Shown: in pieces, positions 3,606-56,739 of the stretch
How positions within the stretch are numbered: the stretch's first letter is position 1
How the letters are laid out: each line of letters starts with the position of its first letter
Sequence record: PZ564402.1
Reading direction: 5' to 3' (one strand)
Origin: a phage
Length of the DNA stretch: 59,352 nt
The notes under the pieces: model-generated
What the model saw: the letters and a program-made list of their open reading frames with translations, nothing else
Database searches by the model: none
Told to the model about the DNA's origin: nothing
Made by a program: the position numbers and the translations under genes

Positions 3606-3868
3606 GGTTACAGGAAATTCGACTTGTAACCTATCCGTAAATCCTTAATTCTACTACCTTTTATCAACTATTAGTTACAAGTTACAAGAAATAAGGGTAA
3701 ATAGGATAAGAAATAGGGATAAAACGTTGTATATTGTAGATCACATCGTCACACATTATATGTATGTATAGGGTTAGCGGCACTTGTAACCTGTACTCAA
3801 AACATGGTCAAGGCCAGTCGTGACGCGGCTTTCAGGGGTTACAAGACGATCATGCGTTTTTGTAACCT
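3606..3868. promoter_or_regulatory. AT-rich control region with multiple GGTTACAA/TTGTAACC inverted and tandem repeats (operator-like)
   Basis: Inverted pairs 3606-3631 and 3838-3868, tandem GTTACAAGTTACAAG at 3673-3690, further copy at 3784-3791; upstream of HTH gene 3925. Confidence 0.5.
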
Positions 3869-3924
3869 CAACGGTTAACAGCACGTCGAACATACGCGAC
3901 GTGTATCAAACGGGGAAACTAAAA

Positions 3925-4251
3925 ATGGCTAGTGCAGTTGAAAAGTTAAAATGCGGAACGTCAGTGGAACGGGCGTTGAACAAAAGAGCGGCTGATAAAG
4001 TGTGCGACGGGGTTAAAAAGCGTCTCAGAAATGCAATAGTCGCGGAAATCGACGACAAGGGGTACACCAATTCCGAAGTTTGCAGCATGACTTGCGTACC
4101 AAGCAGCCGGGTAAGGGAGTTGAAGGAAAAACAAGGAGACGGATTCCAGCTAGAAACGCTTTTACGCATGGCAATTACGCTTAAATTGGACATTGAAATG
4201 GTCACATTCTGGAATCACGACGTGATCAAAGCGCGCGTAAAAATATCGTGA
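3925..4251 (+). CDS. XRE/Cro-like helix-turn-helix transcriptional regulator (109 aa)
   Basis: HTH-like segment GYTNSEVCSMTCVPSSRVRELKEKQ; GGGGAA RBS; start placed at internal ATG because upstream part of ORF overlaps operator repeats. Confidence 0.55.
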   Translation: MASAVEKLKCGTSVERALNKRAADKVCDGVKKRLRNAIVAEIDDKGYTNSEVCSMTCVPSSRVRELKEKQGDGFQLETLLRMAITLKLDIEMVTFWNHDVIKARVKIS

Positions 4252-4264
4252 TTTCTACTAAAAA

Positions 4265-4293
4265 GTAAGGCCGGATTTCCCGGCCTTTTTTAT
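4265..4293. terminator. bidirectional rho-independent terminator (GGCCGG-ATTTCC-CGGCC flanked by A5 and T6)
   Basis: Perfect hairpin between convergent genes 3925-4251 (+) and 4299-6881 (-). Confidence 0.7.
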
Positions 4294-4298
4294 GTCTG

Positions 4299-6881
4299 TT
4301 AAACTTCGTCATCCCACTCGCCCGGTACAACTTTACCGACGATTTTTTCCACCTCCGCGTTATGCTTTTTCAATGTTTTCTGCGCCCATTCGGAGTTAAG
4401 TTTTCCAGACTCGTCGTACGCACCTTTGACACGCTTTCTGACGTACACGCGACCGGACTTCCCGCCGAATTTCAGTACGCCGCCCGGCTTAAATCCGATC
4501 TCCATAAGCATGTTTTTGAGGCGAGACGTTTTCGGCATTTCCACATCTTCGGTTTCAAGGAAGGCGTCTCGCAACGATGGTACGAAGATGATGTCGCGGT
4601 GGACGCCCGGCGTTGTCCCGTCACGCAGCATTGATACTACCGCACCTTCTACCCCATCGTTTGACGCGTCGGCCATGATGGAAAACGCTTCGGTGTCCTG
4701 CGGTGCATGGCCTTTGTGGTCAAAGTCCTCGCTGATCTCCCATTCGAGGAACCATTTCTTCAATGCAGGGACGTGGTTGTCGATCGCCCGGTACACGTTC
4801 TTGAAGAAGCGCGAGCGTTCCGCCTTCGACCCGTATACCCGCTCCATGTCCAGATGATTTTCGGCCTGCGTGGACACTACCAGATAACGACGCTGGTTTT
4901 CATCGAGTGGCAACGCGTTAAAGTGGTTAGTGAACATCATTTTACTACTGGTGTTCACGACAACCTTTGGCTTGCGGCCTTTCGGTTCCACCTGAAAACG
5001 GTCATTGGTGATATACTCTTTCTGCCGCTCGATGGCGCTGTAGCGGTCGCCCTTGTCGTACACCTCTTCCACGATTTTCAGGATGTCGCCTTCCGCCCAA
5101 TCACTGAAACGGCCGTTCATCACGGAGTTTGAAACGTAGCCCACGTTTTTGCGTCCTAACATGGCTGACATGAGCACGCCTAACGTCGATTTACCGGAAC
5201 CGTGCGCGCCGCGAATCAGTAACGAGTAGTTGATGCGCTTCGTCGGGTGCTGGATAATCCACGCCATCCAGTCCATAACGTATCGGCGTTCCTTGTCATT
5301 CGGGAAAAGCACGACAAAGAAGTCCTTGATGATCTCCACGGCCTTTTTATCGTACGGCGAAAGCTCGTCGGCAGGCTCCGGAATGGAATCCGGGTCGAAA
5401 GAGTTGAGCCACGTCTTCCCGGACTCGTCTATAAAGAATTCCGGGCCATTTACCCCCGGCTTCGGCTTCCACAAGGTTTCTTCCATATCACCGTGCATCG
5501 CCGGGTAGTACATGGCGTCACAAACGATAGGGATCGGCCTGACCAGCGATGCAAAAGTGATAGGTTTAATCGTTTCTTCCTCGAATTTGCACATATTTGC
5601 GTACGCGAAGTCGAAAGCGCCCTTAGAAATGTAAGAACCGGACGATTTATCGATCAAACAGTCATTTTCTTCCGAAAAAACGAATTTTTTCAGCCAAATC
5701 GGCATTTCTTTTGAGCCATAATCGAAGCCTAATTGCTCCTTTTTATCGTTCGCAGTCATCCGGTAGTTCTTGATCCGCAGGTACGCTTCGGCCGCAACTT
5801 GGACGATCGTCTTACGGGTCATGCCGAAAATCTGCTCTTTGCGGAAGGATTCGGCCCATGCGTTCCAGTCTTTCTCGTCAGTACACTCGGCAAACGCCTC
5901 GCGGTACTCGATGGCCTTCTCTTCCTGCTCGGCTTTCTCGATTTCACGAACTTCGGTGATGATCGAGCCTAAAGTTACGAGGCGGGATGCGTTGTGCGCG
6001 AAGCCCTTATCCCACTTGTATTCGAAATCACCATCGTCGAAGTTGTGCGCCTGCATGGCCCACTCGCGGGCAATGGATTTCGCTTCGTCCTGATCCCGGC
6101 AGGAGATTTGCAGCGCGGCCAGCACCTTGATGTAGTTCTCGTAATCCTCCGGATTCGGGTACTTCATGACAAGATCGCGAAGGTCTTCGTACGTGCCGTC
6201 CCATTTCCGGATACCCGCCGTTGCCGCCCAATCCTCTTCGTCCGCCGTTCCGATGGCTTCGTACCCGTTCATCGGGCGCTTGACCATCGTCCAGCCCTGC
6301 TCTTTGGCGTAACGGTCAAACTCCGCCGCGATTTCACGCGCGGTATCGAGGCTGATCTCTTCGAGGTCGAAATCGGCTGCGTTGTTCAGCGGATTCTCGT
6401 CGTCGAGCCAGTAATAATCGCGGTTGGTGTCCGGGTGGATACCGTACGCGACGAACTGCTGGCCGTCGGCGAGGATTTCAACCGCATGGCGCTGGCCGAA
6501 GTCGTCTTCCCATACGCCGGACTTCACTTTCGAGAATGGCGATTCCGTCCGGAACAGAAAGAGTTTCTTTGGTGCCCGTCCGATACGACATGGCGCGCGG
6601 CCAACATTCTCCAGCACCCAATCCGCCATATGCGCCACGGCGTCTTCATCGTAAACGTCGATGTCAACCGCCGGGGTGTATTTGGTCAGAATCCCGATGC
6701 CGTTTTTCGTGTAGCGTTCCGCCCAACGCTGGATCTGCTCCTTATCGTTAATTGTTCTTTCCCAATCCTTACCGATGGGGCGTTTACCCGCGCCCTTCTT
6801 ATCGGCGTCCGGGGCGTAGATAGGTACAACGGTGTACCCATTCCCCCAAAGCGTTTCGCCGTACTCTTGCCAGTAATTCAT
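4299..6881 (-). CDS. bifunctional primase-polymerase / SF3 (D5-like) helicase, 860 aa
   Basis: N-terminal prim-pol motifs (VDIDVYDED, YGIHPD), Walker A GAHGSGKST in C-terminal half; acidic C-terminus WDDEV. Confidence 0.8.
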   Translation of the reverse strand: MNYWQEYGETLWGNGYTVVPIYAPDADKKGAGKRPIGKDWERTINDKEQIQRWAERYTKNGIGILTKYTPAVDIDVYDEDAVAHMADWVLENVGRAPCRIGRAPKKLFLFRTESPFSKVKSGVWEDDFGQRHAVEILADGQQFVAYGIHPDTNRDYYWLDDENPLNNAADFDLEEISLDTAREIAAEFDRYAKEQGWTMVKRPMNGYEAIGTADEEDWAATAGIRKWDGTYEDLRDLVMKYPNPEDYENYIKVLAALQISCRDQDEAKSIAREWAMQAHNFDDGDFEYKWDKGFAHNASRLVTLGSIITEVREIEKAEQEEKAIEYREAFAECTDEKDWNAWAESFRKEQIFGMTRKTIVQVAAEAYLRIKNYRMTANDKKEQLGFDYGSKEMPIWLKKFVFSEENDCLIDKSSGSYISKGAFDFAYANMCKFEEETIKPITFASLVRPIPIVCDAMYYPAMHGDMEETLWKPKPGVNGPEFFIDESGKTWLNSFDPDSIPEPADELSPYDKKAVEIIKDFFVVLFPNDKERRYVMDWMAWIIQHPTKRINYSLLIRGAHGSGKSTLGVLMSAMLGRKNVGYVSNSVMNGRFSDWAEGDILKIVEEVYDKGDRYSAIERQKEYITNDRFQVEPKGRKPKVVVNTSSKMMFTNHFNALPLDENQRRYLVVSTQAENHLDMERVYGSKAERSRFFKNVYRAIDNHVPALKKWFLEWEISEDFDHKGHAPQDTEAFSIMADASNDGVEGAVVSMLRDGTTPGVHRDIIFVPSLRDAFLETEDVEMPKTSRLKNMLMEIGFKPGGVLKFGGKSGRVYVRKRVKGAYDESGKLNSEWAQKTLKKHNAEVEKIVGKVVPGEWDDEV

Positions 6882-7237
6882 TCAAGGATTTCCCCTGTTT
6901 CGCTGTCAGTTTTGATCCAAGAAGGGTTAGTCAGCCAGTGGGGGCGGATTCCGGTAAGCGGTACCGCGCTGCAAACTTTTTCGGCCACTGCGCTCGATAC
7001 GTTATTTTGAGTCGCCCATAAAAGGGTCGAGTAGCTTACTTTCGCGGCCTTCGCTAAGTCCGCCATTCTGGCATTCGGATCGATCTCTAATGCCGCTTGT
7101 GTCATTAGAAATTTGACCTTCATCCGGTCGTCGTTTAAAGCCCATTTCGGAAATCGCATAGCCCAAGCCCTCGCATGTGTGCGTGTTATAGATTTGCGGA
7201 TAGTATATCCGGCCCGTAAATCTGTCAAGCTGGCCAT
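6878..7237 (-). CDS. putative HTH DNA-binding protein (119 aa)
   Basis: ATGA-coupled upstream of primase; HTH-like LAKAAKVSYSTLLWATQNN. Confidence 0.45.
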   Translation of the reverse strand: MASLTDLRAGYTIRKSITRTHARAWAMRFPKWALNDDRMKVKFLMTQAALEIDPNARMADLAKAAKVSYSTLLWATQNNVSSAVAEKVCSAVPLTGIRPHWLTNPSWIKTDSETGEILE

Positions 7238-7316
7238 TTAGTCTGGTACCGCAACCATCTTACGTCCGGAATACAAGGCTTTGAGGTACCCAATCAAAAA
7301 ATTTCGAAAAAAGTGT

Positions 7317-7346
7317 TTGACAGTTATTCGGCGTTTGGGCCATACT
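7317..7346 (+). promoter_or_regulatory. putative sigma70 promoter (-35 TTGACA, 18-nt spacer, -10 CATACT) with upstream A-tracts
   Basis: Consensus -35 in divergent intergenic region upstream of 7399. Confidence 0.4.
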
Positions 7347-7398
7347 TCATCCCGTCAACACGACACGACCTTTTAAACACTTAACGGAGTAGAAAATT

Positions 7399-7818
7399 AT
7401 GTCTGGTATCTTCGAACAACTGCTGGCTGAACAACAAAAAACTAACACCCTGCTGGAAGGCGTTCTGGCAGCATTGAAAGGCGGCGCGGTGAATACCTCC
7501 GCTGACGCTGGTAGCGAAACCACCGAAAAAACCACCACCACCACCAAAGGCGGTGCTAAGGGCGGCGCGAAAGGCGGTGCAGGTAAAACCGAAACTAAAG
7601 CGGCCAAGCCTAAGCACACCAAAGACGAAGTAGTCGCTGCTGTCGTCGCGGTTAAAGACGCGTTCGGCGCGCCGGAAGCCAAGAAAATCACCGCTCACTT
7701 CGGCCTCGCGAGAGTCGCGGAAGCGAAGGAAGAACACTTCGACGAAATCGTTGAAATGTGTGAAGCCAAACTGGCTGAAAAAGATGAAGGCGGTAACGGC
7801 GAAGAAGACGACGTTTAA
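7399..7818 (+). CDS. low-complexity Lys/Gly/Thr-rich protein with acidic C-terminus (139 aa)
   Basis: GGAG RBS; KGGAKGGAKGGAGK repeats; ends EEDDV; followed by hairpin terminator. Confidence 0.6.
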   Translation: MSGIFEQLLAEQQKTNTLLEGVLAALKGGAVNTSADAGSETTEKTTTTTKGGAKGGAKGGAGKTETKAAKPKHTKDEVVAAVVAVKDAFGAPEAKKITAHFGLARVAEAKEEHFDEIVEMCEAKLAEKDEGGNGEEDDV

Positions 7819-7833
7819 TCTTTCGCCCCGCAT

Positions 7834-7858
7834 CGGCTCCCTTCGGGGGGCCGTTTTT
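7834..7858 (+). terminator. putative intrinsic terminator/attenuator (CUUCGG hairpin + T5)
   Basis: GGCTCCCTTCGGGGGGCC followed by GTTTTT immediately after 7818 stop. Confidence 0.45.
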
Positions 7859-7880
7859 CACAACCAACGGAGAGGAAATT

Positions 7881-8210
7881 GTGACCAGCATTACTTTCAC
7901 CAACGTTTCTACTACAGGCGGCGCAGTTCTCGCGCGCACTTGGGCGGAGTTTCGTTTTCAAATCGGTGATCGCGATGTGCTGTTCAGAGTTACTTCCCCT
8001 GTTTCGAAACACGAAGCGCCGCTGCTCGTAACCCACGCATCATCCGGTCTTCGAGTATGCGACGTCTGGTGGGACGACGTGGCGAAGACTCGCTTTAACG
8101 CAGGCCGCAATAATTACAGCGGGGCAGGCGCTAGGGCATTAGTAGCGACGATTGAGCGAGTCGGCCAACACCGATTCCTCAACGCGATAAAGGCGTATCC
8201 GAATGAGTAG
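7881..8210 (+). CDS. hypothetical protein (GTG start, 109 aa)
   Basis: GGAGAGGA RBS 5 nt upstream of GTG. Confidence 0.5.
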   Translation: MTSITFTNVSTTGGAVLARTWAEFRFQIGDRDVLFRVTSPVSKHEAPLLVTHASSGLRVCDVWWDDVAKTRFNAGRNNYSGAGARALVATIERVGQHRFLNAIKAYPNE

Positions 8211-9543
8211 TAAGTCACTGTTAGTCCGCATCATGCGGGAATTCGGCGGTGGCGGCCACTCAATCTTCGCGCCTTCTGCGTCAGCGCGGTGGATAGCATG
8301 TTCCGGGAGCCTGATAGCCGGGCTTTTCGAGCATGACGAAACCATCTACGAGGCGGCGGAAGGCACGGTGGCCCACGGAATCGCCGAACAATGGCTGCGA
8401 ACGGATGTCCGGCCAACCCATTTAATCGGCACTGTCGAGACGATCACGGAAGGCGATGTCAGTCATGACATCCCGATCACGCGGTCAATGCTCGACGCAG
8501 TTCAGGAATACGTGGACTGGTGCCGATTTGAAGAGGGTGAAATGTTCACGGAAATTCGGGTATGGTTCACAGACCTGATGCCGCGAGCAAACCCGGATGA
8601 ACCTGACGAAGAACCGGAAGAGTTTGTCGCTCAGGGCGGAACGGCGGATAACATCATCATCCGTGACCGCACCTTGATCGTGACCGACCTGAAATACGGT
8701 ACTGGTGTTCAGGTTTTCGCGGAAGGGAACCCGCAGGCGCTACTTTACGCGTACGGTGCGTACCGCGCTTTTGCGGATGAATACGAGTTTGACCGTATCA
8801 TCATCCGGATTGCGCAGCCGCGACTCGACCACTTCGATACGTGGGAAATCACGCTTGACGAGTTGTTGGAGTTTGCGGAGTACGCCCGGGAGCGGATTGC
8901 AGCGGCATGGAGCCTTACCGCGCCGCGCCGCGCATCCCTGAAAGGGTGTCGCTTTTGCCGGGCAGCACATAACTGCGCAGCGATAGCGTACATGATGGAA
9001 TGTGCAGTGGGTGGGGATGTGGAATTCCTTGAAGCCGAATTCGGGGAGGAAGAAATGTCAGTATTGCGTGATGCGCTGGCGCAGGAGTATAAATTCCGGC
9101 GTGCGCAGTTCGGAAACCTGACAACCGAGCAGATGGCTAAGATCCTGCCATACCGCAAGGTGGTCGAAAACTGGTTCTCGCGCCTTGACTTCGAACTGGA
9201 ACGCCGCGCAATGAACGGTGAGAAGGTACCGGGTCAAAAGCTGGTTGAGTCGCGGACAAACCGCAAATTCGCCAACGAGAAAGATGCGATCGCGTTGTTC
9301 AAGTTCCTCGACATCGAAGAGGACAAGTACATCGAGCGCAAACTGCGTACTCCGGCGCAGATGGAAGAAGTGCTTAGGGATGAATTGGGCGTGTCCCGGG
9401 CTGGCGCGCCAAACATTATCGCGGGGATCGTTTACAAGCCGGAAGGCAAACCGACACTGGCACCGCTGACCGATAAGCGGCCACCACTGGACGGCAAGTA
9501 TTCCGGGGCGTGGGACGATGAAGATGATGACGACGAAGTGTAA
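8203..9543 (+). CDS. PD-(D/E)XK (RecB/Cas4-like) nuclease, 446 aa
   Basis: Motifs LIVTDLKYG (D/ExK) and QALLYAYG (QxxxY), Cys cluster CRFCRAAHNC; acidic C-terminus WDDEDDDDEV. Confidence 0.65.
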   Translation: MSSKSLLVRIMREFGGGGHSIFAPSASARWIACSGSLIAGLFEHDETIYEAAEGTVAHGIAEQWLRTDVRPTHLIGTVETITEGDVSHDIPITRSMLDAVQEYVDWCRFEEGEMFTEIRVWFTDLMPRANPDEPDEEPEEFVAQGGTADNIIIRDRTLIVTDLKYGTGVQVFAEGNPQALLYAYGAYRAFADEYEFDRIIIRIAQPRLDHFDTWEITLDELLEFAEYARERIAAAWSLTAPRRASLKGCRFCRAAHNCAAIAYMMECAVGGDVEFLEAEFGEEEMSVLRDALAQEYKFRRAQFGNLTTEQMAKILPYRKVVENWFSRLDFELERRAMNGEKVPGQKLVESRTNRKFANEKDAIALFKFLDIEEDKYIERKLRTPAQMEEVLRDELGVSRAGAPNIIAGIVYKPEGKPTLAPLTDKRPPLDGKYSGAWDDEDDDDEV

Positions 9544-9588
9544 ACCCGTAAAACCGTAGAAAGTAAACCCGTAAAACAGTAAACCGAG
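9541..9588 (+). repeat. five tandem degenerate GTAAA(A)CC repeats in leader of SSB gene
   Basis: TAAACCCGTAAAACCGTAGAAAGTAAACCCGTAAAACAGTAAACC directly upstream of RBS GAGGA. Confidence 0.5.
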
Positions 9589-9597
9589 GATATTAAG

Positions 9598-10194
9598 ATG
9601 GCCGAGAAATTAGTCCCTGCGAAGAAAGTCAAGAATGGCGTGCTGTATAAATCTGGTCACATCAAGATTTCTAACGTACGTGCTTCTTACCCGCACCTCG
9701 ATAAGCCGTACGGCGGCGAAGACGGCGGCGAGCCGAAATACTCGCTGACACTTTTGATGCCGAAAGAAAGCCACGGCGAGATCGAGAAAATCATCCGCGA
9801 GCAGATCGAAGTCACCAAGAAGAACCACAAGACAGGCGCGCTTAAAGTGGCTCCGTCCATGTTGTTCATCAAAGACGGCGACACCGATTTCCCGGACAAA
9901 CCGGAATGCGAAGGGATGTGGGTTATCTCAGCGCGCGAAAGCAAACGCCCGGATGTGTATAACATCGAGCGCGAAGAGTTGACTACTTCTTCCGAAATTC
10001 TGGAAGAGATCTACGGTGGTTGTTGGGTGTCTGTCGTCATCCGTCCGTGGTCGCAGGAAAACAAATTCGGCAAACGCGTCAACGCCAACCTGATTTCCGT
10101 TCTCAAACGCAAAGACGACGAGCCGTTCGGTGAAGGTCGCGTTGACACGTCTGATGCGTGGGATGAAGACGAAGATTGGGAAGACGAAGTGTAA
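9598..10194 (+). CDS. ssDNA-binding protein, T7 gp2.5-like (198 aa)
   Basis: N-terminal ASYPHLDKPYGG...YSLTLLMP resembles gp2.5 YAYIAKPDYG...YKVDLTIP; acidic C-terminal tail DAWDEDEDWEDEV. Confidence 0.6.
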   Translation: MAEKLVPAKKVKNGVLYKSGHIKISNVRASYPHLDKPYGGEDGGEPKYSLTLLMPKESHGEIEKIIREQIEVTKKNHKTGALKVAPSMLFIKDGDTDFPDKPECEGMWVISARESKRPDVYNIEREELTTSSEILEEIYGGCWVSVVIRPWSQENKFGKRVNANLISVLKRKDDEPFGEGRVDTSDAWDEDEDWEDEV

Positions 10195-10220
10195 TTCACG
10201 CCCTCGGGCGGTAATTCAAG

Positions 10221-10244
10221 GCCCGCCGTGTGCGGGCTTTTTTC
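10221..10244 (+). terminator. rho-independent terminator (GCCCGC-CGTGT-GCGGGC + T6)
   Basis: Perfect 6-bp stem and T-tract right after SSB gene. Confidence 0.65.
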
Positions 10245-10260
10245 ATATAGGAGCGTTGAC

Positions 10261-12300
10261 GTGACCGATTGCATTAATCTTGACTATGAATCCAGAAGCC
10301 GGGTGAACCTTAAAACGAACGGCTTCGACCGTTATTCGAATGACGAATCGACGAAAGTGCTGATGGGCGCGTGGTCGATCAACGGCGGCGCGGTGCAGCA
10401 CGTAGACCTTCATCGCGGCAAAAAGTTGCCCGGCGAACTGCGTGAAGCGCTGGAAGACCCGGACGTGGAGAAGTGGGCCTTTAACGCTCAGTTCGAACGC
10501 GTGATAACCCGCCGGGTGCTCGGCATTAAGACGCCGTACAAAGCGTGGCGCTGTACGATGGCGATGGCGTATATGCTTGGCTTCGCGGGCGACCTGCTGT
10601 CGGTCGGAACACAATTGGGATTGCCGGAAGACAAACTGAAAGACCCGGAAGGCAAGCGCCTGATCGACCTGTTCAGCAAGCCGCAGCGCGTCACGAAGAA
10701 AAACCCATTTGAGTGGCGCAACGAAGCGACCGACCCGGAAGACTGGTGGCACTTCTGCCGATACAACGTGCGAGACGTTGAAACCGAACTGGCGATTAAA
10801 GCGCGCCTGATGCGGTACCCGATTCTGGACGCCGAGTGGGATATGTACGCGCTGGATCAGTTCATCAACGACACTGGCGTGATGATTGACCGCGAATTCG
10901 CGTACTCGGCGCTGGCACTCGCAGAAGCGCGCAAACCGCAGATTATCGAAGAAATGGCCGACATTACTGGCCTGAATAATCCAAACTCCCCGGCGCAGTT
11001 AACACCGTGGCTCAAAGAGCGCGGCTATCCGTTCAGTGACCTCCGCAGCGACACCGTCAACAAAGTTATCCGTGAAGCCGATGAAAACGGCGTTGACCCG
11101 GACGCGATCCGCGTGCTGCGGATGCGACTGAACAGCGCGAAAAACTCCCTGTCCAAATACCAGACCATGATTGACGCGGCTGGCGAGGATGGCCGTTTTC
11201 GCTTCTCGCTGCAATTTGCCGGGGCGAGTCGTACGAACCGTTGGGCTGGCCGTCGAATCCAGACCCAAAACCTGCCGAGAACGCCGAAGCTGATTGAGGA
11301 CGTGACCGACCTGTCCATCGTCAACAAGATGATCCACCAGCGTGACCTTGATGCGCTGACGCTGTATGTGGGCGAGCCGATGGACGCGCTGGTGGGCTGC
11401 ATCCGCTCCGCCTTCATCCCGACGCCGGGCTACAAGTTTATCGTTGCCGACCTGTCTTCCATCGAATCCGTGGTTATCGGTTGGCTGACGAACTGCAAAT
11501 GGTTCATGGATACGCTGGCGGCCAAGCACGACCTTTACCGTTCATTCGCGGCCCACTGGCTGCACCTGCCGTACGAAGAAACGAAACCGCACCGCTCGAA
11601 AGCCAAACCTGCAACCCTCGGCGCGGGCTATCGCCTCGGCGGCGGCCACATGGATGACAATGGCAAGAAGACCGGGCTGTGGGGTTACGCTGAAAACATG
11701 GGCGTACACATGACGCAGAAAGAGGCAGAAGAGTCGGTACAGGCGTTCCGCGACCTTTGCCCGGAAATCGTTCAGGCATGGTATGGCCTCGAAAACGCGG
11801 TGTTCAAGGTTATCCGCACCCGTCAGGCCGTCGTGTGGGGCTGTCTGATTATCGAATACACAAAACCATTCCTGACCATCCGTCTGCCGTCTGGACGCAA
11901 AATGTATTACTTCCGCCCGCGTCTGGTCGAGCGCCAGATGACGGTTCAGAAGGGGCCGAAGAAAGGCGAGAAGTACACAAAGACCAACTTCCAGTACGAA
12001 GGCAAGGTGGAGGGCAGTGGCACCAAGTGGGGCAAGATCTACAGCCACGGCGGTAAGCTGGTGGAAAACATCGTTCAGGCACTGGCGCGCGACGTGCTCG
12101 CCGAAGGTCTGAAAAAGGCGCACCGCATGGGCTTCCGCATCGTCATGCACATCCACGATGAAATCGTAACCGAAGTGCCAGAAGACAGCCCGCTGACAGT
12201 GGACGACCTGATCTCCTGCATGGTGGCCGAACTGCCGTGGGCCGAAGGTCTACCGCTTGGCGCTGCCGGGTGGGAAGGATATTTCTACCGTAAGGATTAA
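10261..12300 (+). CDS. family A DNA polymerase with 3'-5' exonuclease domain (GTG start)
   Basis: Exo I DxE (LDYESRS), polymerase motifs RRIQTQNLPR, KPATLGAGY, HIHDEIV; AGGAG RBS 7 nt before GTG; ATG at 10228 rejected as it sits in the terminator hairpin. Confidence 0.85.
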   Translation: MTDCINLDYESRSRVNLKTNGFDRYSNDESTKVLMGAWSINGGAVQHVDLHRGKKLPGELREALEDPDVEKWAFNAQFERVITRRVLGIKTPYKAWRCTMAMAYMLGFAGDLLSVGTQLGLPEDKLKDPEGKRLIDLFSKPQRVTKKNPFEWRNEATDPEDWWHFCRYNVRDVETELAIKARLMRYPILDAEWDMYALDQFINDTGVMIDREFAYSALALAEARKPQIIEEMADITGLNNPNSPAQLTPWLKERGYPFSDLRSDTVNKVIREADENGVDPDAIRVLRMRLNSAKNSLSKYQTMIDAAGEDGRFRFSLQFAGASRTNRWAGRRIQTQNLPRTPKLIEDVTDLSIVNKMIHQRDLDALTLYVGEPMDALVGCIRSAFIPTPGYKFIVADLSSIESVVIGWLTNCKWFMDTLAAKHDLYRSFAAHWLHLPYEETKPHRSKAKPATLGAGYRLGGGHMDDNGKKTGLWGYAENMGVHMTQKEAEESVQAFRDLCPEIVQAWYGLENAVFKVIRTRQAVVWGCLIIEYTKPFLTIRLPSGRKMYYFRPRLVERQMTVQKGPKKGEKYTKTNFQYEGKVEGSGTKWGKIYSHGGKLVENIVQALARDVLAEGLKKAHRMGFRIVMHIHDEIVTEVPEDSPLTVDDLISCMVAELPWAEGLPLGAAGWEGYFYRKD

Positions 12301-12301
12301 C

Positions 12302-12589
12302 ATGGCCGAGCCGATAATCAGAGAATCGAAGGTTGAAAAGCGCTGCTGCGAATACGCGCAGGGCCGTGGGTGGTGGGTATCAAAATTCACCTCCCCCGGT
12401 AAAAAAGCCGTCCCGGATCGTGTGCTGATCCGTGGCGGTATTGTGCTTTTTATCGAATTCAAACGCCCCGGCGAAGAACCAACGGCGCAGCAGTATCACC
12501 GCCATAAGGAAATGCGCAAGGCAGGGGCAAACGTGACATGGGTGGACAATTTTGCAGACTTTAAAAACTACATTATCGCCTTTGAGTAG
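12302..12589 (+). CDS. VRR-NUC domain nuclease
   Basis: Small PD-(D/E)XK-type core FIEFKRPGEEPTAQQ; starts 2 nt after polymerase stop. Confidence 0.6.
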   Translation: MAEPIIRESKVEKRCCEYAQGRGWWVSKFTSPGKKAVPDRVLIRGGIVLFIEFKRPGEEPTAQQYHRHKEMRKAGANVTWVDNFADFKNYIIAFE

Positions 12590-14111
12590 AGCGCTCGCGT
12601 ATTGCCTGCGGACGGTTAAACTGAACCGCAGCGACATGCACGACTATCAGGACGAAGGCGTCCAGTTCATCAAAGACCATCCGTACTGCGGCATGTTCGT
12701 AGACCTCGGCTTGGGTAAGACTGTCATGACCGGGACGGCCATGCTAGACCTGATCGCGGACGGCGAAATCAACAAAGTCCTCGTCGTCGCGCCGAAGCGA
12801 GTGGCCCGTACCGGGTGGCCGACGGAATTCGACGAGTGGGGCCATCTGTGCTTCTACAAGATGTCGATTATCGCCGGAAACGCCAAAGAGCGCGCAGCGG
12901 CCGCGAGTAAGGACTGCCATTTTTACACGATCAGCGTCGATAACATCGCGTGGCTGTGCGAGCACTTCAAGACGAAATGGCCGTTCGACGCCGTGGTGCT
13001 GGACGAGTCGAGCATGTTCAAATCCCACACCTCGCAGCGCTTCAAACTGCTGCGCCGGGTGCGGAAGTACATCAAACGGATCGTCGAGTTGACGGCCACG
13101 CCTGCGGCCGAAGGGTACATGGGTATCTTCTCGCAAATTTACCTGCTGGACGAAGGCGAGCGCTTTGGCTCCACCATCGGCGGTTATCAGGACAACTACT
13201 TCACGCAGAACCGCTACAACTTCAAATGGAAACTTCGCCCCGGTGCGGAAGACGAGATTATTCGGAAGATTTCTGATATATGTTTAGTCATGAAAGCGGA
13301 AGACTACCTTGACATGCACGAACCGAATTTCGTTCCTGTCCCGGTCGAGTTAGACGGGGAGACGGCCGAGCGGTACCGCATGATGGAGGAAGAGAGCCTC
13401 GTCGAGATTATGCCGGACGATTTCGATGAACATCTGGATGACCCAATCGTGATCGAAGCGGAGCAGGCCGCGTCTTTGCAGTCGAAGCTATTGCAGATGT
13501 GCTCAGGCTTCATCTACGACACGAAAATCGTTGGCATAACGCAAGACGACAAGGTCATTAAGCAGAAGGACACGTACAGGCTGCACGACCTGAAATTCGA
13601 TGCACTGGAAGAACTGCTGGAAACCACGCTGGCCGATAAAAACGTGCTGATCGCCTATCACTTCAAGCCGACCCTCGAACGACTGAAAGAGCGGTTTAAA
13701 GATCTGGTGGTCATGGATGATGACGGTAAGTGCATCAAGAAGTGGAACGCCGGAAAGATTCGACTGCTGGCCGCGCACCCTCAGTCAGCGGGACACGGTT
13801 TAAACCTCCAGCATGGCGGCCACGTCATCGTCTACATCGACAATCCGTGGTCACTCGAACGCTTCCTGCAATTCAATGGCCGATTGCACCGTCAGGGGCA
13901 GAAGTACCCGGTTACGATCTACCAGTTCAAAGCCATGCTGCGAACACCGAACGGGCTTCTGGCCGAGACGGCGGACGACGTAGTCATACAGGCGCTGGTC
14001 GAAAAGGAAGACGTGCAGGACGCGTTCTTCGAACTGCTCGAACGTATCAAAGGGCGCATCAAACGCCGCAAGAAATCGAAAAATAAAGGGGTATGGGATG
14101 ACGAAGAGTAA
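12552..14111 (+). CDS. SNF2/SF2 family helicase (start uncertain: TTG 12552 or ATG 12636)
   Basis: Q-motif HDYQDEGV, Walker A GLGKT, DExx-like VVLDES, helicase C motifs; C-terminus VWDDEE. Confidence 0.75.
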   Translation: MQTLKTTLSPLSRALAYCLRTVKLNRSDMHDYQDEGVQFIKDHPYCGMFVDLGLGKTVMTGTAMLDLIADGEINKVLVVAPKRVARTGWPTEFDEWGHLCFYKMSIIAGNAKERAAAASKDCHFYTISVDNIAWLCEHFKTKWPFDAVVLDESSMFKSHTSQRFKLLRRVRKYIKRIVELTATPAAEGYMGIFSQIYLLDEGERFGSTIGGYQDNYFTQNRYNFKWKLRPGAEDEIIRKISDICLVMKAEDYLDMHEPNFVPVPVELDGETAERYRMMEEESLVEIMPDDFDEHLDDPIVIEAEQAASLQSKLLQMCSGFIYDTKIVGITQDDKVIKQKDTYRLHDLKFDALEELLETTLADKNVLIAYHFKPTLERLKERFKDLVVMDDDGKCIKKWNAGKIRLLAAHPQSAGHGLNLQHGGHVIVYIDNPWSLERFLQFNGRLHRQGQKYPVTIYQFKAMLRTPNGLLAETADDVVIQALVEKEDVQDAFFELLERIKGRIKRRKKSKNKGVWDDEE

Positions 14112-14667
14112 TGCGCCACTGGCAACCCGGAATCGCCGCTCTAACGCGCCGGACGCCGACACAGAAGCGATGATCTTTCAGGGCTGCAACATCACGCAAC
14201 TGGCAAAACTGTTCCGCATGGAGCGCCGGGACATCACGCCGAAAATCATGGATGTCCCGCCTATCGGCGAGCGTGGCGGGTACCCGATCTACGCGGTTCA
14301 CGAAGTGGCCCCGTACCTCGTTAAGCCGCTGTACGATGTCGAGACGTACCTGCGCCGCATGAATTTCAAGGATCTGCCGAAGGAGTTGTCGAAAGAGTTT
14401 TGGGCCGGGCAGCGTGCAAAGCAGGACTTCGACATCAAAGCTGGCAACCTGTGGGAAACAGAGAAGGTGATCGAGCACTTCGGCGAGGCGGTGAAGGTAC
14501 TGCGCATGTCGATGCTGCTCATTCCCGACACGCTGGCGCGTCAGGCCGGACTCAGCGAGCCGCAACGTCAGGTCATCACGTCATCCATTGACGCCATGCT
14601 GAACGACCTGTCGAGCGCGCTGATCGAGAAGTTCAACGGCGACGAGGTGGACGACGATGAAGTTTAA
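14098..14667 (+). CDS. terminase small subunit, Nu1-like winged-HTH (189 aa)
   Basis: NITQLAKLFRMERRDITPKIMDVPPIGERGGYPIYAVHEV resembles lambda Nu1 N-terminal DNA-binding domain; directly upstream of and overlapping TerL; C-terminus DDDEV. Confidence 0.55.
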   Translation: MTKSNAPLATRNRRSNAPDADTEAMIFQGCNITQLAKLFRMERRDITPKIMDVPPIGERGGYPIYAVHEVAPYLVKPLYDVETYLRRMNFKDLPKELSKEFWAGQRAKQDFDIKAGNLWETEKVIEHFGEAVKVLRMSMLLIPDTLARQAGLSEPQRQVITSSIDAMLNDLSSALIEKFNGDEVDDDEV

Positions 14668-21558: not shown

Positions 21559-21852
21559 ATGCCAAAACGTAAAGTTCTCCAGACCGTCATCGTTTACCGC
21601 GACGGCGCGCGTATCAAGCCTTCCATCGGCGAGATCTTCGATTTCAAACAGGCCGAACTGGACAGCATCAACAAAATCAACCCGGACGCCATTGGCCGCC
21701 CGGTGATGGAAGTTGACGTGGAAAATCAGGCAGCGCAGGAAGCCGCAGCGCAGCAGGCGAAAGCTGAAACGTCCAAAAAAGACGAGAAGGCCGACGGTGC
21801 TAAGAAAAACGCCAAAGACGATAAAAAGTCTGGCGCGGAAGACGAAGTCTAA
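21559..21852 (+). CDS. hypothetical head-associated protein, Lys/Ala-rich with acidic C-terminus
   Basis: ORF between capsid and adaptor genes; ends AEDEV. Confidence 0.5.
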   Translation: MPKRKVLQTVIVYRDGARIKPSIGEIFDFKQAELDSINKINPDAIGRPVMEVDVENQAAQEAAAQQAKAETSKKDEKADGAKKNAKDDKKSGAEDEV

Positions 21853-54151: not shown

Positions 54152-55225
54152 TTAAACCTCGTCGTCGTCTTCGTCGTTCAGCGTTCCGGTGTACTCAACA
54201 ACCTGCCCGGCCTCGTCCAGCACGCTGATCACCGCACGCAGGGACTTATCGAGTTGGAACAGGTTCGCCATCATGGTCAGGAACTGGCCGCCATCGGTGC
54301 CGTAACGTTCGAGCGTGGCGTCGTAGTTCGCATCGACGTCGGCCTCGCCGATATGGATACCGGACAGGATGGCTTTGTCGGACAGGCGGAAGTACACGGT
54401 GTCGATGCCCGGGCATTGCGTATCGACTTCGAGATCCAGTGCGCGGACAGTCCAGTGGCGGGACAGCAGGTCAACCACCGCCTCGTCTTTGAAGATGTCC
54501 GTGTCCTTCATCTTAACGTCGTCACCATCGTCGTGTTTCAGGTGGATAAACGCATCGCCCTTGATGCCGTCCTGCTGGCCGAGAACCGCGCGCTGCATTA
54601 ACTGGCGCAGCTCATACTCGCTCGGCAGGAGGTGTTCGACGGGCCATGTGCCGAGCGCGGTACGGATCAGCGCGCTGCACTCTTCTGCCGTCTTCGCGCT
54701 CGACGTGAACACGTACACGAACGGGGCGGACAGGATGACGTTGACGCGGGACGGGCGGATAGGCGCGTATTTCAGCATTTCCGCTTCCACGTCGTCCTTC
54801 ATCTGCGCCCAATCCTTGCGGTTCGGCTCCCAACCCTCGATCTCTTTCTCCCGCAACGCGGCCATGCGCTTCACGACTTCATTTCGTACGCTGACGCCGG
54901 GCAACACACGTTCGCGCTTTTCGATCTGGAAGACGATGGCGTTTGTCCCGGGGATGGCGAGCGCAAACTTGCTGTCAACCTCTTCGCCGTACGCTGCAAA
55001 GCCCATTGTCTTGTAAGACGCCTCCGGCGGATCTGACACTTCATGCTTTTCGAGTGCATCGCTTAACGCTCCTTTAGCGAAAGACGTCACCGCCTCTTCG
55101 TCAACGTTCGGCAGATTCAGGATCAGGCGGTGCAGCGGCTTGACCTTCTCGTTACCGTCGTTGGCCGCGTCGTACAGCGCGCCGAGGTGCAAGATAATGG
55201 CTTTCTCATAACCCTTGATTTTCAT
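54152..55225 (-). CDS. RdgC-like recombination-associated protein with acidic C-terminal tail
   Basis: Segments VLPGVSVRNEVVKRMAALREKE and AEECSALIRTALGTWPVEHLLP resemble E. coli RdgC as I recall it; ends NDEDDDEV. Confidence 0.5.
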   Translation of the reverse strand: MKIKGYEKAIILHLGALYDAANDGNEKVKPLHRLILNLPNVDEEAVTSFAKGALSDALEKHEVSDPPEASYKTMGFAAYGEEVDSKFALAIPGTNAIVFQIEKRERVLPGVSVRNEVVKRMAALREKEIEGWEPNRKDWAQMKDDVEAEMLKYAPIRPSRVNVILSAPFVYVFTSSAKTAEECSALIRTALGTWPVEHLLPSEYELRQLMQRAVLGQQDGIKGDAFIHLKHDDGDDVKMKDTDIFKDEAVVDLLSRHWTVRALDLEVDTQCPGIDTVYFRLSDKAILSGIHIGEADVDANYDATLERYGTDGGQFLTMMANLFQLDKSLRAVISVLDEAGQVVEYTGTLNDEDDDEV

Positions 55226-56367: not shown

Positions 56368-56739
56368 TTAAACTTCGTCGTCGTCCGCGACGTCGGTGGC
56401 CGTACAGGTTACGACGGCCTGAATGAACATGCGGCCAGACGGGTAAGTCACCAGCGCGGACTCCATGCTGAACCGTTGGCCGTGGTGCTTCATGGCATTC
56501 CGGATGGAGGAATTTAGGCTGGCCCGCATCTTCGCTTTGAGGGCATTGGCCTCGTCCTGTACCTGCGAAAGCGTACGGTCAAGCGGGAGTTCTTGGGACA
56601 GGGTGTACACGCCACCGACTTCCAGCGCAATGAGGTTCCCCACGACGCTGTACACGCGCACGCGTGACGGCAGTTCAACATCCGGCTCGGTCGTCATCAT
56701 TGCGCCAGTCAGTTCGGCCGGGCTTAGTTCTTTGCTCAT
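56368..56739 (-). CDS. hypothetical early protein with acidic C-terminus (123 aa)
   Basis: GGAG RBS; first gene after promoter 56782-56810; ends DVADDDEV. Confidence 0.5.
   Translation of the reverse strand: MSKELSPAELTGAMMTTEPDVELPSRVRVYSVVGNLIALEVGGVYTLSQELPLDRTLSQVQDEANALKAKMRASLNSSIRNAMKHHGQRFSMESALVTYPSGRMFIQAVVTCTATDVADDDEV

Follow-up and report, generated by a model that had tools for sequence, protein, structure and literature searches.

The question raised by this locus is what a small, low-complexity protein does at the head of a phage replication operon, and whether the hairpin that follows its gene helps to set its level. The DNA analyzed was the 59,352-nt phage record PZ564402.1, taken as a whole (hereafter the window, to which all unprefixed coordinates refer), and the gene in question occupies positions 7399–7818 on the plus strand and codes for 139 amino acids (aa). 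A preliminary description of the locus had taken the product to be disordered, highly charged and probably abundant, had drawn attention to its repeats and acidic C-terminus, had offered a DNA mimic, a nucleoid-associated protein or a docking adaptor as its function, and had proposed that the hairpin may act as an attenuator. In the reading put forward here, the 139-aa protein is predicted to be expressed early and at a very high level as part of a conserved replication module, working as a stalk-like docking adaptor or occupancy regulator. Taken as a whole, this reading is held to stand about evenly between right and wrong.

Gene family and genomic context

Positions 6800–8300 were 95–97% identical to Chi-like phages of Salmonella and Serratia (Chivirus, Casjensviridae), and by this similarity the window was assigned to a Chi-like Salmonella phage (Chivirus). 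The 139-aa protein is the counterpart of YSD1_4 of phage YSD1, of gene 4 of Chi and of ORF3 of Enc34, each of which is recorded as a “hypothetical protein”. In the replication module as described for Enc34, ORF3 falls among the “four hypothetical proteins” (PMC5686142).

[quoted passage not shown] Its homologues hold the same position in YSD1, Enc34, XAP3, Pae-SS2019XI (Pseudomonas phage SS2019XI), SLP-22 (Salmonella) and three metagenomic loci at 25–35% identity. The operon continues 3' of the gene, sometimes after one small gene, with the DUF2800 exonuclease, the Enc34/gp2.5-type SSB and PolA, and in the longer loci with VRR-NUC, an SNF2 helicase and the small terminase. Placement on the same strand, directly or one small gene 5' of the DUF2800 exonuclease/SSB/PolA genes, was found at 12 loci besides that of the window, ranging from Chivirus to phages of Vibrio, Staphylococcus and E. 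coli; the match in Xylella phage Sano is weak (E 0.0027). Using a local hidden Markov model of the family, homologues were located directly 5' of DUF2800 in Vibrio phage 1.017.O (116 aa), in Staphylococcus phage IPLA35 (gp14, 120 aa, phrog_408) and in E. coli phage 606R2, where the homologue makes up the C-terminal portion of a protein of 300 aa. A description of the duf2800-gp2.5-polA module exists (PMC8093625), and none of the small gene 5' of it was found in the literature searched. On the evidence of gene order, the 139-aa protein is regarded as a fixed, previously unremarked fourth component of this replication/recombination module.

The protein matched phrog_7721 (unknown function) over its full length (E 2e-68; residues 1–139 on profile positions 1–138 of 138). 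A profile search of 1.84 billion representatives returned 278 cluster representatives at E<=1e-3 (clusters at 50% identity), nearly all of them 105–190 aa long. The remote homologues are assigned to a separate family, phrog_408, and neither phrog_7721 nor phrog_408 carries a functional annotation. A word-indexed protein search listed close relatives almost exclusively, with a few new ones at 51–67% identity. Searches of Pfam, NCBIfam and the PDB sequences gave nothing above threshold, the only matches being chance-level ones to LigT, Tic110, RAP80 and Ribosomal_60s, and Rfam gave no match at E<=1 in positions 6800–10400. A match to a protein of 3058 aa, P0195, was considered as a clue to a domain fusion and rejected, as it looks like a repetitive artefact. 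Homologues are named “RecT protein” in Klebsiella phages KPN N54, KPN N98 and SAKp02, in Xanthomonas phage XAP3 and in several UniRef clusters. Judged from these matches, the family is widespread and without annotation, and is mislabelled “RecT” in some records. No study of the gene or of the shared C-terminal tips described below turned up in the literature, nor did a transcriptome of a Chi-like phage; the search term “chi” mostly caught unrelated words.

Architecture of the 139-aa protein

A structural model was produced with AlphaFold from an alignment of 143 sequences. The predicted local distance difference test score (pLDDT) was below 55 only at residues 29–72 and over the last ~8 residues, while residues 2–28 and 75–132 were modelled as confident helices. 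“Disordered, highly charged” was therefore an overstatement: the disorder is borne out for the linker and the extreme C-terminus, whereas about 60% of the chain is confidently helical. In the model and the family alignment a conserved build of four parts can be recognized: from the N-terminus, a helix, a disordered linker of basic character, a domain of three helices and an acidic tail with an aliphatic end.

Across the family the N-terminal helix has hydrophobic columns at the 3–4 spacing of heptads, and one core column alternates between Asn and Leu/Ile. It is probably a coiled-coil oligomerization element with a conserved core Asn. The linker varies from 17 to 59 residues and is net positive in 98% of members (+4 in the 139-aa protein); its composition is 25% A, 18% K, 16% T and 11% G, it is also rich in P, and it abounds in insertions and deletions among close relatives. 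The three-helix domain, of 55 residues, has helices at residues 75–89, 91–100 and 111–132 in the model. It is net acidic in 85% of members, its conserved positions are K86, G90, A94, K95, K105, F114 and D115, and it is kept in the tail-less remote homologues of the Vibrio, Staphylococcus and E. coli phages. The tail, with a pLDDT below 60, is net negative in 99% of members, with a typical net charge of –5. Of 143 family representatives, 141 end in L, I, M or V, with D, E or G as the preceding residue.

The 139 residues include 23 A, 18 E, 17 K, 17 G and 14 T, and the protein has a pI of 5.0 and a net charge of –7. Residues 50–63 are KGGAKGGAKGGAGK, with KGGA three times in tandem, for which a chance of ~1e-5 per protein of like composition was estimated from residue frequencies. 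At the DNA level a 12-nt unit, AAAGGCGGTGCG, is repeated 2.9 times at 7546–7580, and its 5' neighbour at 7531–7546 is (ACC)5.3, coding for TTTTT. The low-complexity repeat protein with an acidic end (six acidic residues among the last 12, KDEGGNGEEDDV) is thus as it had first been described, down to the hairpin that follows it. As a notable feature the repeat fared less well; it is present, but it is not conserved, in a linker whose length differs widely across the family. The KGGA copy number varies among phages that are otherwise 92–98% identical in this protein, and the variation is therefore a replication-slippage polymorphism. From the alignment, the repeat is best described as a lineage-specific, length-polymorphic filling of the linker and not as a conserved feature.

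A different arrangement was seen in Xylella phage Sano. Its positional homologue, gp74 (L017 4174–4650, annotated as “putative lipoprotein”), has an acidic block with an internal DDDLGL on the N-terminal side of the three-helix domain and a basic block that carries an AT-hook-like GRGRP. The Sano SSB ends in DDDDDIGL, and the Sano small terminase has DDIGL near its end. Given where the motif lies in gp74 and in the small terminase, it is not strictly C-terminal in the Sano lineage.

Shared C-terminal tip

Eight proteins of the window end in [DE]3-V, against 0.009 expected from the composition of the gene set, and all eight of the six-frame open reading frames (ORFs) with this ending are real genes. 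They are listed in the table below. The same eight orthologues of Enc34 end in D-E-V or E-E-V, and D-E-V is also the ending of five of the XAP3 genes that were examined. Other lineages use another last residue. The primase, 139-aa homologue, exonuclease, SSB, small terminase, post-capsid protein, RdgC and a ParB-like protein of Pae-SS2019XI all end in D-L, and the tip-bearing proteins of the metagenomic loci L006, L008 and L010 end in L. In SLP-22 the 139-aa homologue, SSB, small terminase and post-capsid protein end in D-I or E-I, and one further ORF ends in D-L.

Chi (V) and SLP-22 (I) both infect Salmonella; the last residue therefore follows the phage lineage and not the host. Because proteins of different folds change their last residue together, we infer that they share one co-evolving receptor, which would most simply be phage-encoded. 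The concerted change thus suggests a single phage-encoded receptor for the tips.

The SNF2 helicase of the window (12552–14111, plus strand) has a strongly basic stretch followed by VWDDEE at its end, where a terminal aliphatic residue is absent; the W-D-D-E element is common to the tails of the primase, exonuclease and SSB, and SNF2 orthologues of other lineages have plain basic tails at the end. The helicase may pair electrostatically with the acidic tips. In XAP3 (L003 4623–4997) and in the metagenomic locus L008 (6593–7192), two unrelated-looking phage proteins encoded in this operon have DDDIPF at the C-terminus, identical to the tip of bacterial SSB, which suggests mimicry of the docking signal of the host SSB. 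The positional counterpart in the window (7881–8210) ends in AYPNE and is without DDDIPF.

Expression of the gene

The fraction of host-optimal codons (Fop) of the 139-aa gene was 0.83, which ranked first among 75 ORFs of the window; the major capsid protein reached 0.79 and the median was 0.58. The top rank was unchanged when the repeat/linker region was left out and when a stricter codon set was used. Orthologues also ranked first in Enc34 (0.84) and SLP-22 (0.87), in each of which 11–16 major annotated genes were compared. A promoter-like site of the sigma-70 type lies 5' of the gene (7317–7346), and its –35, –10 and upstream A-tract are kept in Enc34 and XAP3. It is predicted to be a strong, conserved, host-type promoter that drives the rightward replication operon. 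Top codon adaptation, together with a conserved strong promoter and a conserved terminator-like hairpin, makes it probable that the protein is abundant, and we consider it probably a very highly expressed early protein. The early guess of abundance is in this respect upheld.

High codon adaptation was also noted for the DUF7443 protein (21559–21852, plus strand; 97 aa), which has the third-highest Fop (0.76), a K/D/A-rich low-complexity C-terminal half and the shared tip at its end. From these features it is predicted to be an abundant head-module protein.

The hairpin begins 15 nt past the TAA stop codon. It has the form CGGCTCCC-TTCG-GGGGGCCG (7834–7853), with eight pairs of which seven are G-C, followed by TTTTT at 7854–7858, and so has the G+C-rich stem, loop and U run of an intrinsic terminator. 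It was the top-ranked terminator-like site in positions 4000–14000, although the simple terminator pattern is not enriched in those 10 kb (14 found, 13.8 expected from shuffles). In Enc34, XAP3, SLP-22 and L007 the homologous gene likewise has a GC-rich hairpin and a U run behind it, with a stem of its own sequence in each case. The hairpin of L008 has a weaker U run, and no clear U run accompanies those of L006 and L012. The main support for the hairpin is accordingly its conservation of position and not of sequence. A second hairpin of this kind (10218–10240) separates the SSB gene from that of the DNA polymerase.

No sigma-70 promoter-like site was found on the plus strand between 7346 and 12297, and the replication genes must therefore be reached by read-through. 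The layout is consistent with a stepwise attenuation in which the 139-aa protein comes first, then the genes up to that of the SSB, then the enzymes. It is somewhat unlikely, although to be taken seriously, that the hairpin is instead a full terminator with an unrecognized promoter downstream, or mainly a 3' stabilizer of a processed transcript. A stem of 8 bp with seven G-C pairs and a T5 run looks efficient, and promoters that are phage-specific or activator-dependent would escape a sigma-70 scan. On the other side, no promoter-like site separates the hairpin from the polymerase gene, only 22 nt lie between the T run and the start of the next gene, and in two lineages (Pae-SS2019XI and L010) the gene directly adjoins that of the exonuclease and is fused into the operon with no hairpin between them, an arrangement that shows co-transcription with the exonuclease gene to be the ancestral logic. 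Attenuation, as first proposed for the hairpin, thus gains from its conservation across lineages with different sequences, from the absence of a sigma-70-like promoter before the essential downstream genes, and from the second conserved hairpin after the SSB gene.

A further palindromic hairpin, AAGGCCGG...CCGGCCTT, with T runs on both strands, was seen at 4267–4287. Placed at the junction of the leftward primase gene and the rightward ORF 3820–4251, it looks like a bidirectional terminator.

Feature coordinates and neighbouring reading frames

Table. Features of the 139-aa gene and its operon, and the genes of the window whose products share the C-terminal tip.
Feature	Position	Strand	Detail
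Sigma-70-type promoter (predicted), TTGACA-18 nt-CATACT, with A-rich tract 5'	7317–7346	+	10/12 matches
Shine-Dalgarno GGAG, 9 nt 5' of ATG	7386–7389	+	read from sequence
Coding sequence of 139-aa protein	7399–7818	+	ATG start, TAA stop; phrog_7721; tip set, ends GEEDDV
N-terminal amphipathic helix, residues 2–28	7402–7482	+	AlphaFold pLDDT 76–90
Disordered net-basic A/K/T/G linker, residues 29–72, conserved KPKHT at end	7483–7614	+	pLDDT ~50
Tandem DNA repeats, (ACC)5 and 12-nt unit x2.9, coding for TTTTT and KGGAKGGAKGGA	7531–7580	+	copy number polymorphic among Chiviruses
Three-helix domain, residues 73–132, superfamily core	7615–7794	+	pLDDT 83–91
Acidic C-terminal tail KDEGGNGEEDDV with terminal aliphatic tip	7780–7815	+	family conservation
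Terminator-like hairpin (8-bp stem, TTCG loop) and T5	7834–7858	+	position conserved across lineages
Second terminator-like hairpin and T run, between SSB and DNA polymerase genes	10218–10240	+	same position in Enc34, XAP3, SLP-22, Pae-SS2019XI, L010
PrimPol/DUF5906 primase-helicase	4299–6881	-	tip set, ends GEWDDEV
DUF2800 PD-(D/E)XK exonuclease	8203–9543	+	tip set, ends DDDDEV
Enc34/gp2.5-type SSB and annealing protein	9598–10194	+	tip set, ends DWEDEV
Terminase small subunit	14098–14667	+	tip set, ends DDDEV
DUF7443 small protein just after capsid gene	21559–21852	+	tip set, ends AEDEV
RdgC-like protein	54152–55225	-	tip set, ends DDDEV
DUF7609 protein	56368–56739	-	tip set, ends DDDEV

An ORF on the opposite strand (7381–7833, minus strand, 150 aa) is longer than the real gene and lies wholly opposite to it, and a naive longest-ORF call chooses it. 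It was rejected as a gene, since stops interrupt the frame in Enc34, XAP3, L005, L008 and L012, and it is best accounted for as a shadow of the A/E/K/G-rich codon composition of the sense strand.

The divergent small regulator was called mechanically as an ORF of 119 aa (6878–7237, minus strand), which starts 5' of a leftward promoter-like TTGACA-17-TACTAT at 7200–7228 on the minus strand. The PHROG match of the regulator starts at residue 27; the real start is therefore probably internal, giving the 93-aa protein that is annotated in YSD1.

Proposed function and alternatives

The steps of the proposed mechanism are as follows. The first hairpin would act as a partial terminator, keeping the transcript of the 139-aa gene, and later that of the SSB gene, above the level of the downstream enzymes. 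The N-terminal helix would make the protein a dimer or oligomer. The tip of the tail, by analogy with T7, would be a short docking motif that fits a pocket on one receptor common to all tip-bearers. As the most abundant of these, with flexible and probably paired arms, the 139-aa protein could serve as a stalk-like adaptor or occupancy regulator, and the adaptor may organize or buffer the access of replication, recombination and packaging proteins to the receptor on phage DNA. Of the three functions offered in the preliminary description, docking adaptor is the best fit.

A broader proposal is that phages of the Casjensviridae type organize replication, recombination and packaging by means of a single C-terminal motif that co-evolves ([DE]2-3 with V, L or I as the last residue, on at least eight proteins), with the 139-aa protein as organizer, which would be either the receptor, by way of its three-helix domain, or a multivalent scaffold that concentrates tip-bearers on phage DNA. 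In this full form we think the idea doubtful.

Several observations tell against the adaptor. In the phages of Vibrio, Staphylococcus and E. coli the remote homologues are without the acidic tail; the tail therefore cannot be the ancestral function, and some separate role must belong to the three-helix domain. The primase and exonuclease of SLP-22 are without the terminal aliphatic residue, and membership of the tip set is therefore not fixed. Part of the uniformity of the tips within a genome is shared ancestry and so is not independent evidence, and the evidence for docking consists of motif conservation and concerted change, both read from sequence. Codon adaptation is indirect evidence of abundance. 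As to the hairpin, the folding energy of positions 7810–7880 is unexceptional against shuffles (z = –0.61), and the two lineages mentioned above, Pae-SS2019XI and L010, do without it.

An abundant architectural DNA-binding protein, with a role like that of phi29 p6 or of the HMGB type, was weighed among the alternatives and is judged unlikely. The linker, the KPKHT motif and the domain would then bind phage DNA, and the tail would fold back to tune the binding. The linker is indeed basic nearly throughout the family, it is rich in A, K, T and P like tails of the H1/SPKK type, and its charge is concentrated beside the domain; KPKHT and the three lysines of the domain are conserved, codon adaptation above that of the capsid protein suggests stoichiometric use, and the Sano homologue has its AT-hook-like GRGRP. 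The protein as a whole is net acidic (–7, pI 5.0), however, no recognized DNA-binding fold or Pfam domain was found, and the concerted change of the last residue with that of seven other proteins is left unexplained. The nucleoid-associated protein of the preliminary description is a possibility that faces the same division between a basic linker and a net acidic whole.

Decidedly unlikely, in our judgement, is the possibility that the 139-aa protein is itself the receptor or hub, its three-helix domain binding acidic-aliphatic tips, its own tail serving as an autoinhibitory or chain-forming ligand, and its N-terminal helix turning it into a multivalent scaffold. The model for this proposal is lambda Red-beta, whose three-helix C-terminal domain binds lambda Exo and the C-terminal peptide of SSB. 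It would account for the domain, and not the tail, being the universally conserved core that is always coded beside the exonuclease and SSB genes, and the exonuclease and SSB of the tail-less lineages still share tips (FDKL/EDFL in Staphylococcus phage IPLA35 and ADLI/EALI in E. coli phage 606R2). Lysines K86, K95 and K105 are conserved in the domain, and high abundance would fit a stoichiometric scaffold. But no sequence-profile similarity to lambda Bet was found, and a domain that is net acidic in 85% of members is unfavourable for the binding of acidic tails. Domain position 98 co-varies with the terminal residue, but the score (z 7.3) is below that of a clade-marking indel column (z 9.1), and as it may just reflect phylogeny it was rejected as evidence.

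A DNA mimic or host-nuclease inhibitor like lambda Gam or T7 gp5.9, protecting linear phage DNA from RecBCD or restriction, is very unlikely, and this part of the preliminary description is not sustained. Early, strong expression, an acidic tail with a probable dimeric helix, and a gene order that resembles gam-bet-exo would suit such a protein. The acidic residues are nevertheless confined to a short flexible tail of ~12 residues and form no array on a rigid surface; the linker carries a net positive charge, here (+4) as in 98% of the family, and the net charge is only –7. In the structure searches neither Gam, Ocr, ArdA or gp5.9 nor any other fold match to known mimics was among the matches listed. 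The tip, being common to the phage's own proteins, points inward and not to a host target.

Membership of the RecT/Red-beta-type single-strand annealing proteins, the name used in some GenBank and UniRef records, has a probability close to nil and is refuted by Pfam, hhalign and length: PF03837 matched neither the window protein nor any of 28 family members, hhalign against lambda Bet returned a match probability of 0.15%, 139 aa are too few for an annealing core of about 180–200 residues, and the annealing function of the module has been assigned to the gp2.5-type SSB (PMC8093625).

Comparison with known systems

Docking through acidic tails is a known principle. What appears new beside the adaptor reading is that an uncharacterized, top-expressed family is recognized as a constant member of the module, that the tip set is so broad, taking in terminase, RdgC, ParB-like and head-module proteins, and that it switches in concert from lineage to lineage. 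If true, the “acidic tail” idea drawn from T7 and SSB would grow from a replisome contact between two proteins to a genome-wide docking code, and such a code would link replication to packaging. The family sits in the replication module of phages of Gram-negative and Gram-positive hosts, and its members top codon adaptation in the three phages checked. The proposal also lends itself to experiment, as the motif spans just a few residues, related phages supply natural variants with V, L and I, and Salmonella, the host of Chi, is tractable.

The acidic tail of T7 gp4 ends in Phe and docks on the T7 DNA polymerase. That of T7 gp2.5, likewise with Phe at its end, anchors on a basic patch of the polymerase and mediates protein-protein contacts (PMC12339929). 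The SSB of the window, of the Enc34 type, is structurally homologous to T7 gp2.5, and in the crystal of Enc34 SSB the acidic C-terminal segment packs on a neighbouring SSB molecule (PMC5686142). As with gp2.5 and gp4, a disordered acidic tail with a hydrophobic end is found here on more than one replisome protein. Unlike in T7, the last residue is aliphatic (V, L, I or M) and not Phe, and the tip is carried by at least eight proteins, including the small terminase, the RdgC-like protein, a head-module protein and, in a relative, a ParB-like protein. T7 is without a counterpart of the 139-aa protein. Considered as a candidate for the receptor, the DNA polymerase of the window is ~20% identical to T7 gp5, with an alignment that is unreliable around the T7 basic patch KWKRR.

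The C-terminal domain of lambda Red-beta and lambda Orf offer a second comparison, as a three-helix bundle that binds lambda Exo and the SSB tip (PMC6393309). The likeness lies in a small three-helix bundle coded with an exonuclease-annealase pair. It does not extend to sequence, in which no relationship is detectable, and it is no better than the likeness to unrelated bundles; unlike the Red-beta domain, the three-helix domain here forms part of a separate protein with its own N-terminal helix, linker and tail.

In its build the 139-aa protein resembles the ribosomal stalk (bacterial L7/L12 and archaeal/eukaryotic P1/P2), which likewise has an N-terminal oligomerization helix, a flexible Ala/Gly/Lys-rich hinge, a distal functional module and a high copy number. 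P1/P2 also share the acidic tail with a hydrophobic end, which in their case recruits factors. A sub-threshold Pfam match to Ribosomal_60s was obtained for 2 of 28 family members (best E 0.003); the likeness is an analogy only and implies no relation to translation.

Bacterial SSB recruits many proteins of genome maintenance through its tip (DDDIPF), which is, like the tips described here, an acidic-hydrophobic C-terminal motif on a flexible linker that serves as a docking signal. The motif sequence differs, and the polarity is reversed: bacterial SSB presents one tip to many pockets, whereas in the Chi-like phages many tips would meet what is presumably one pocket.

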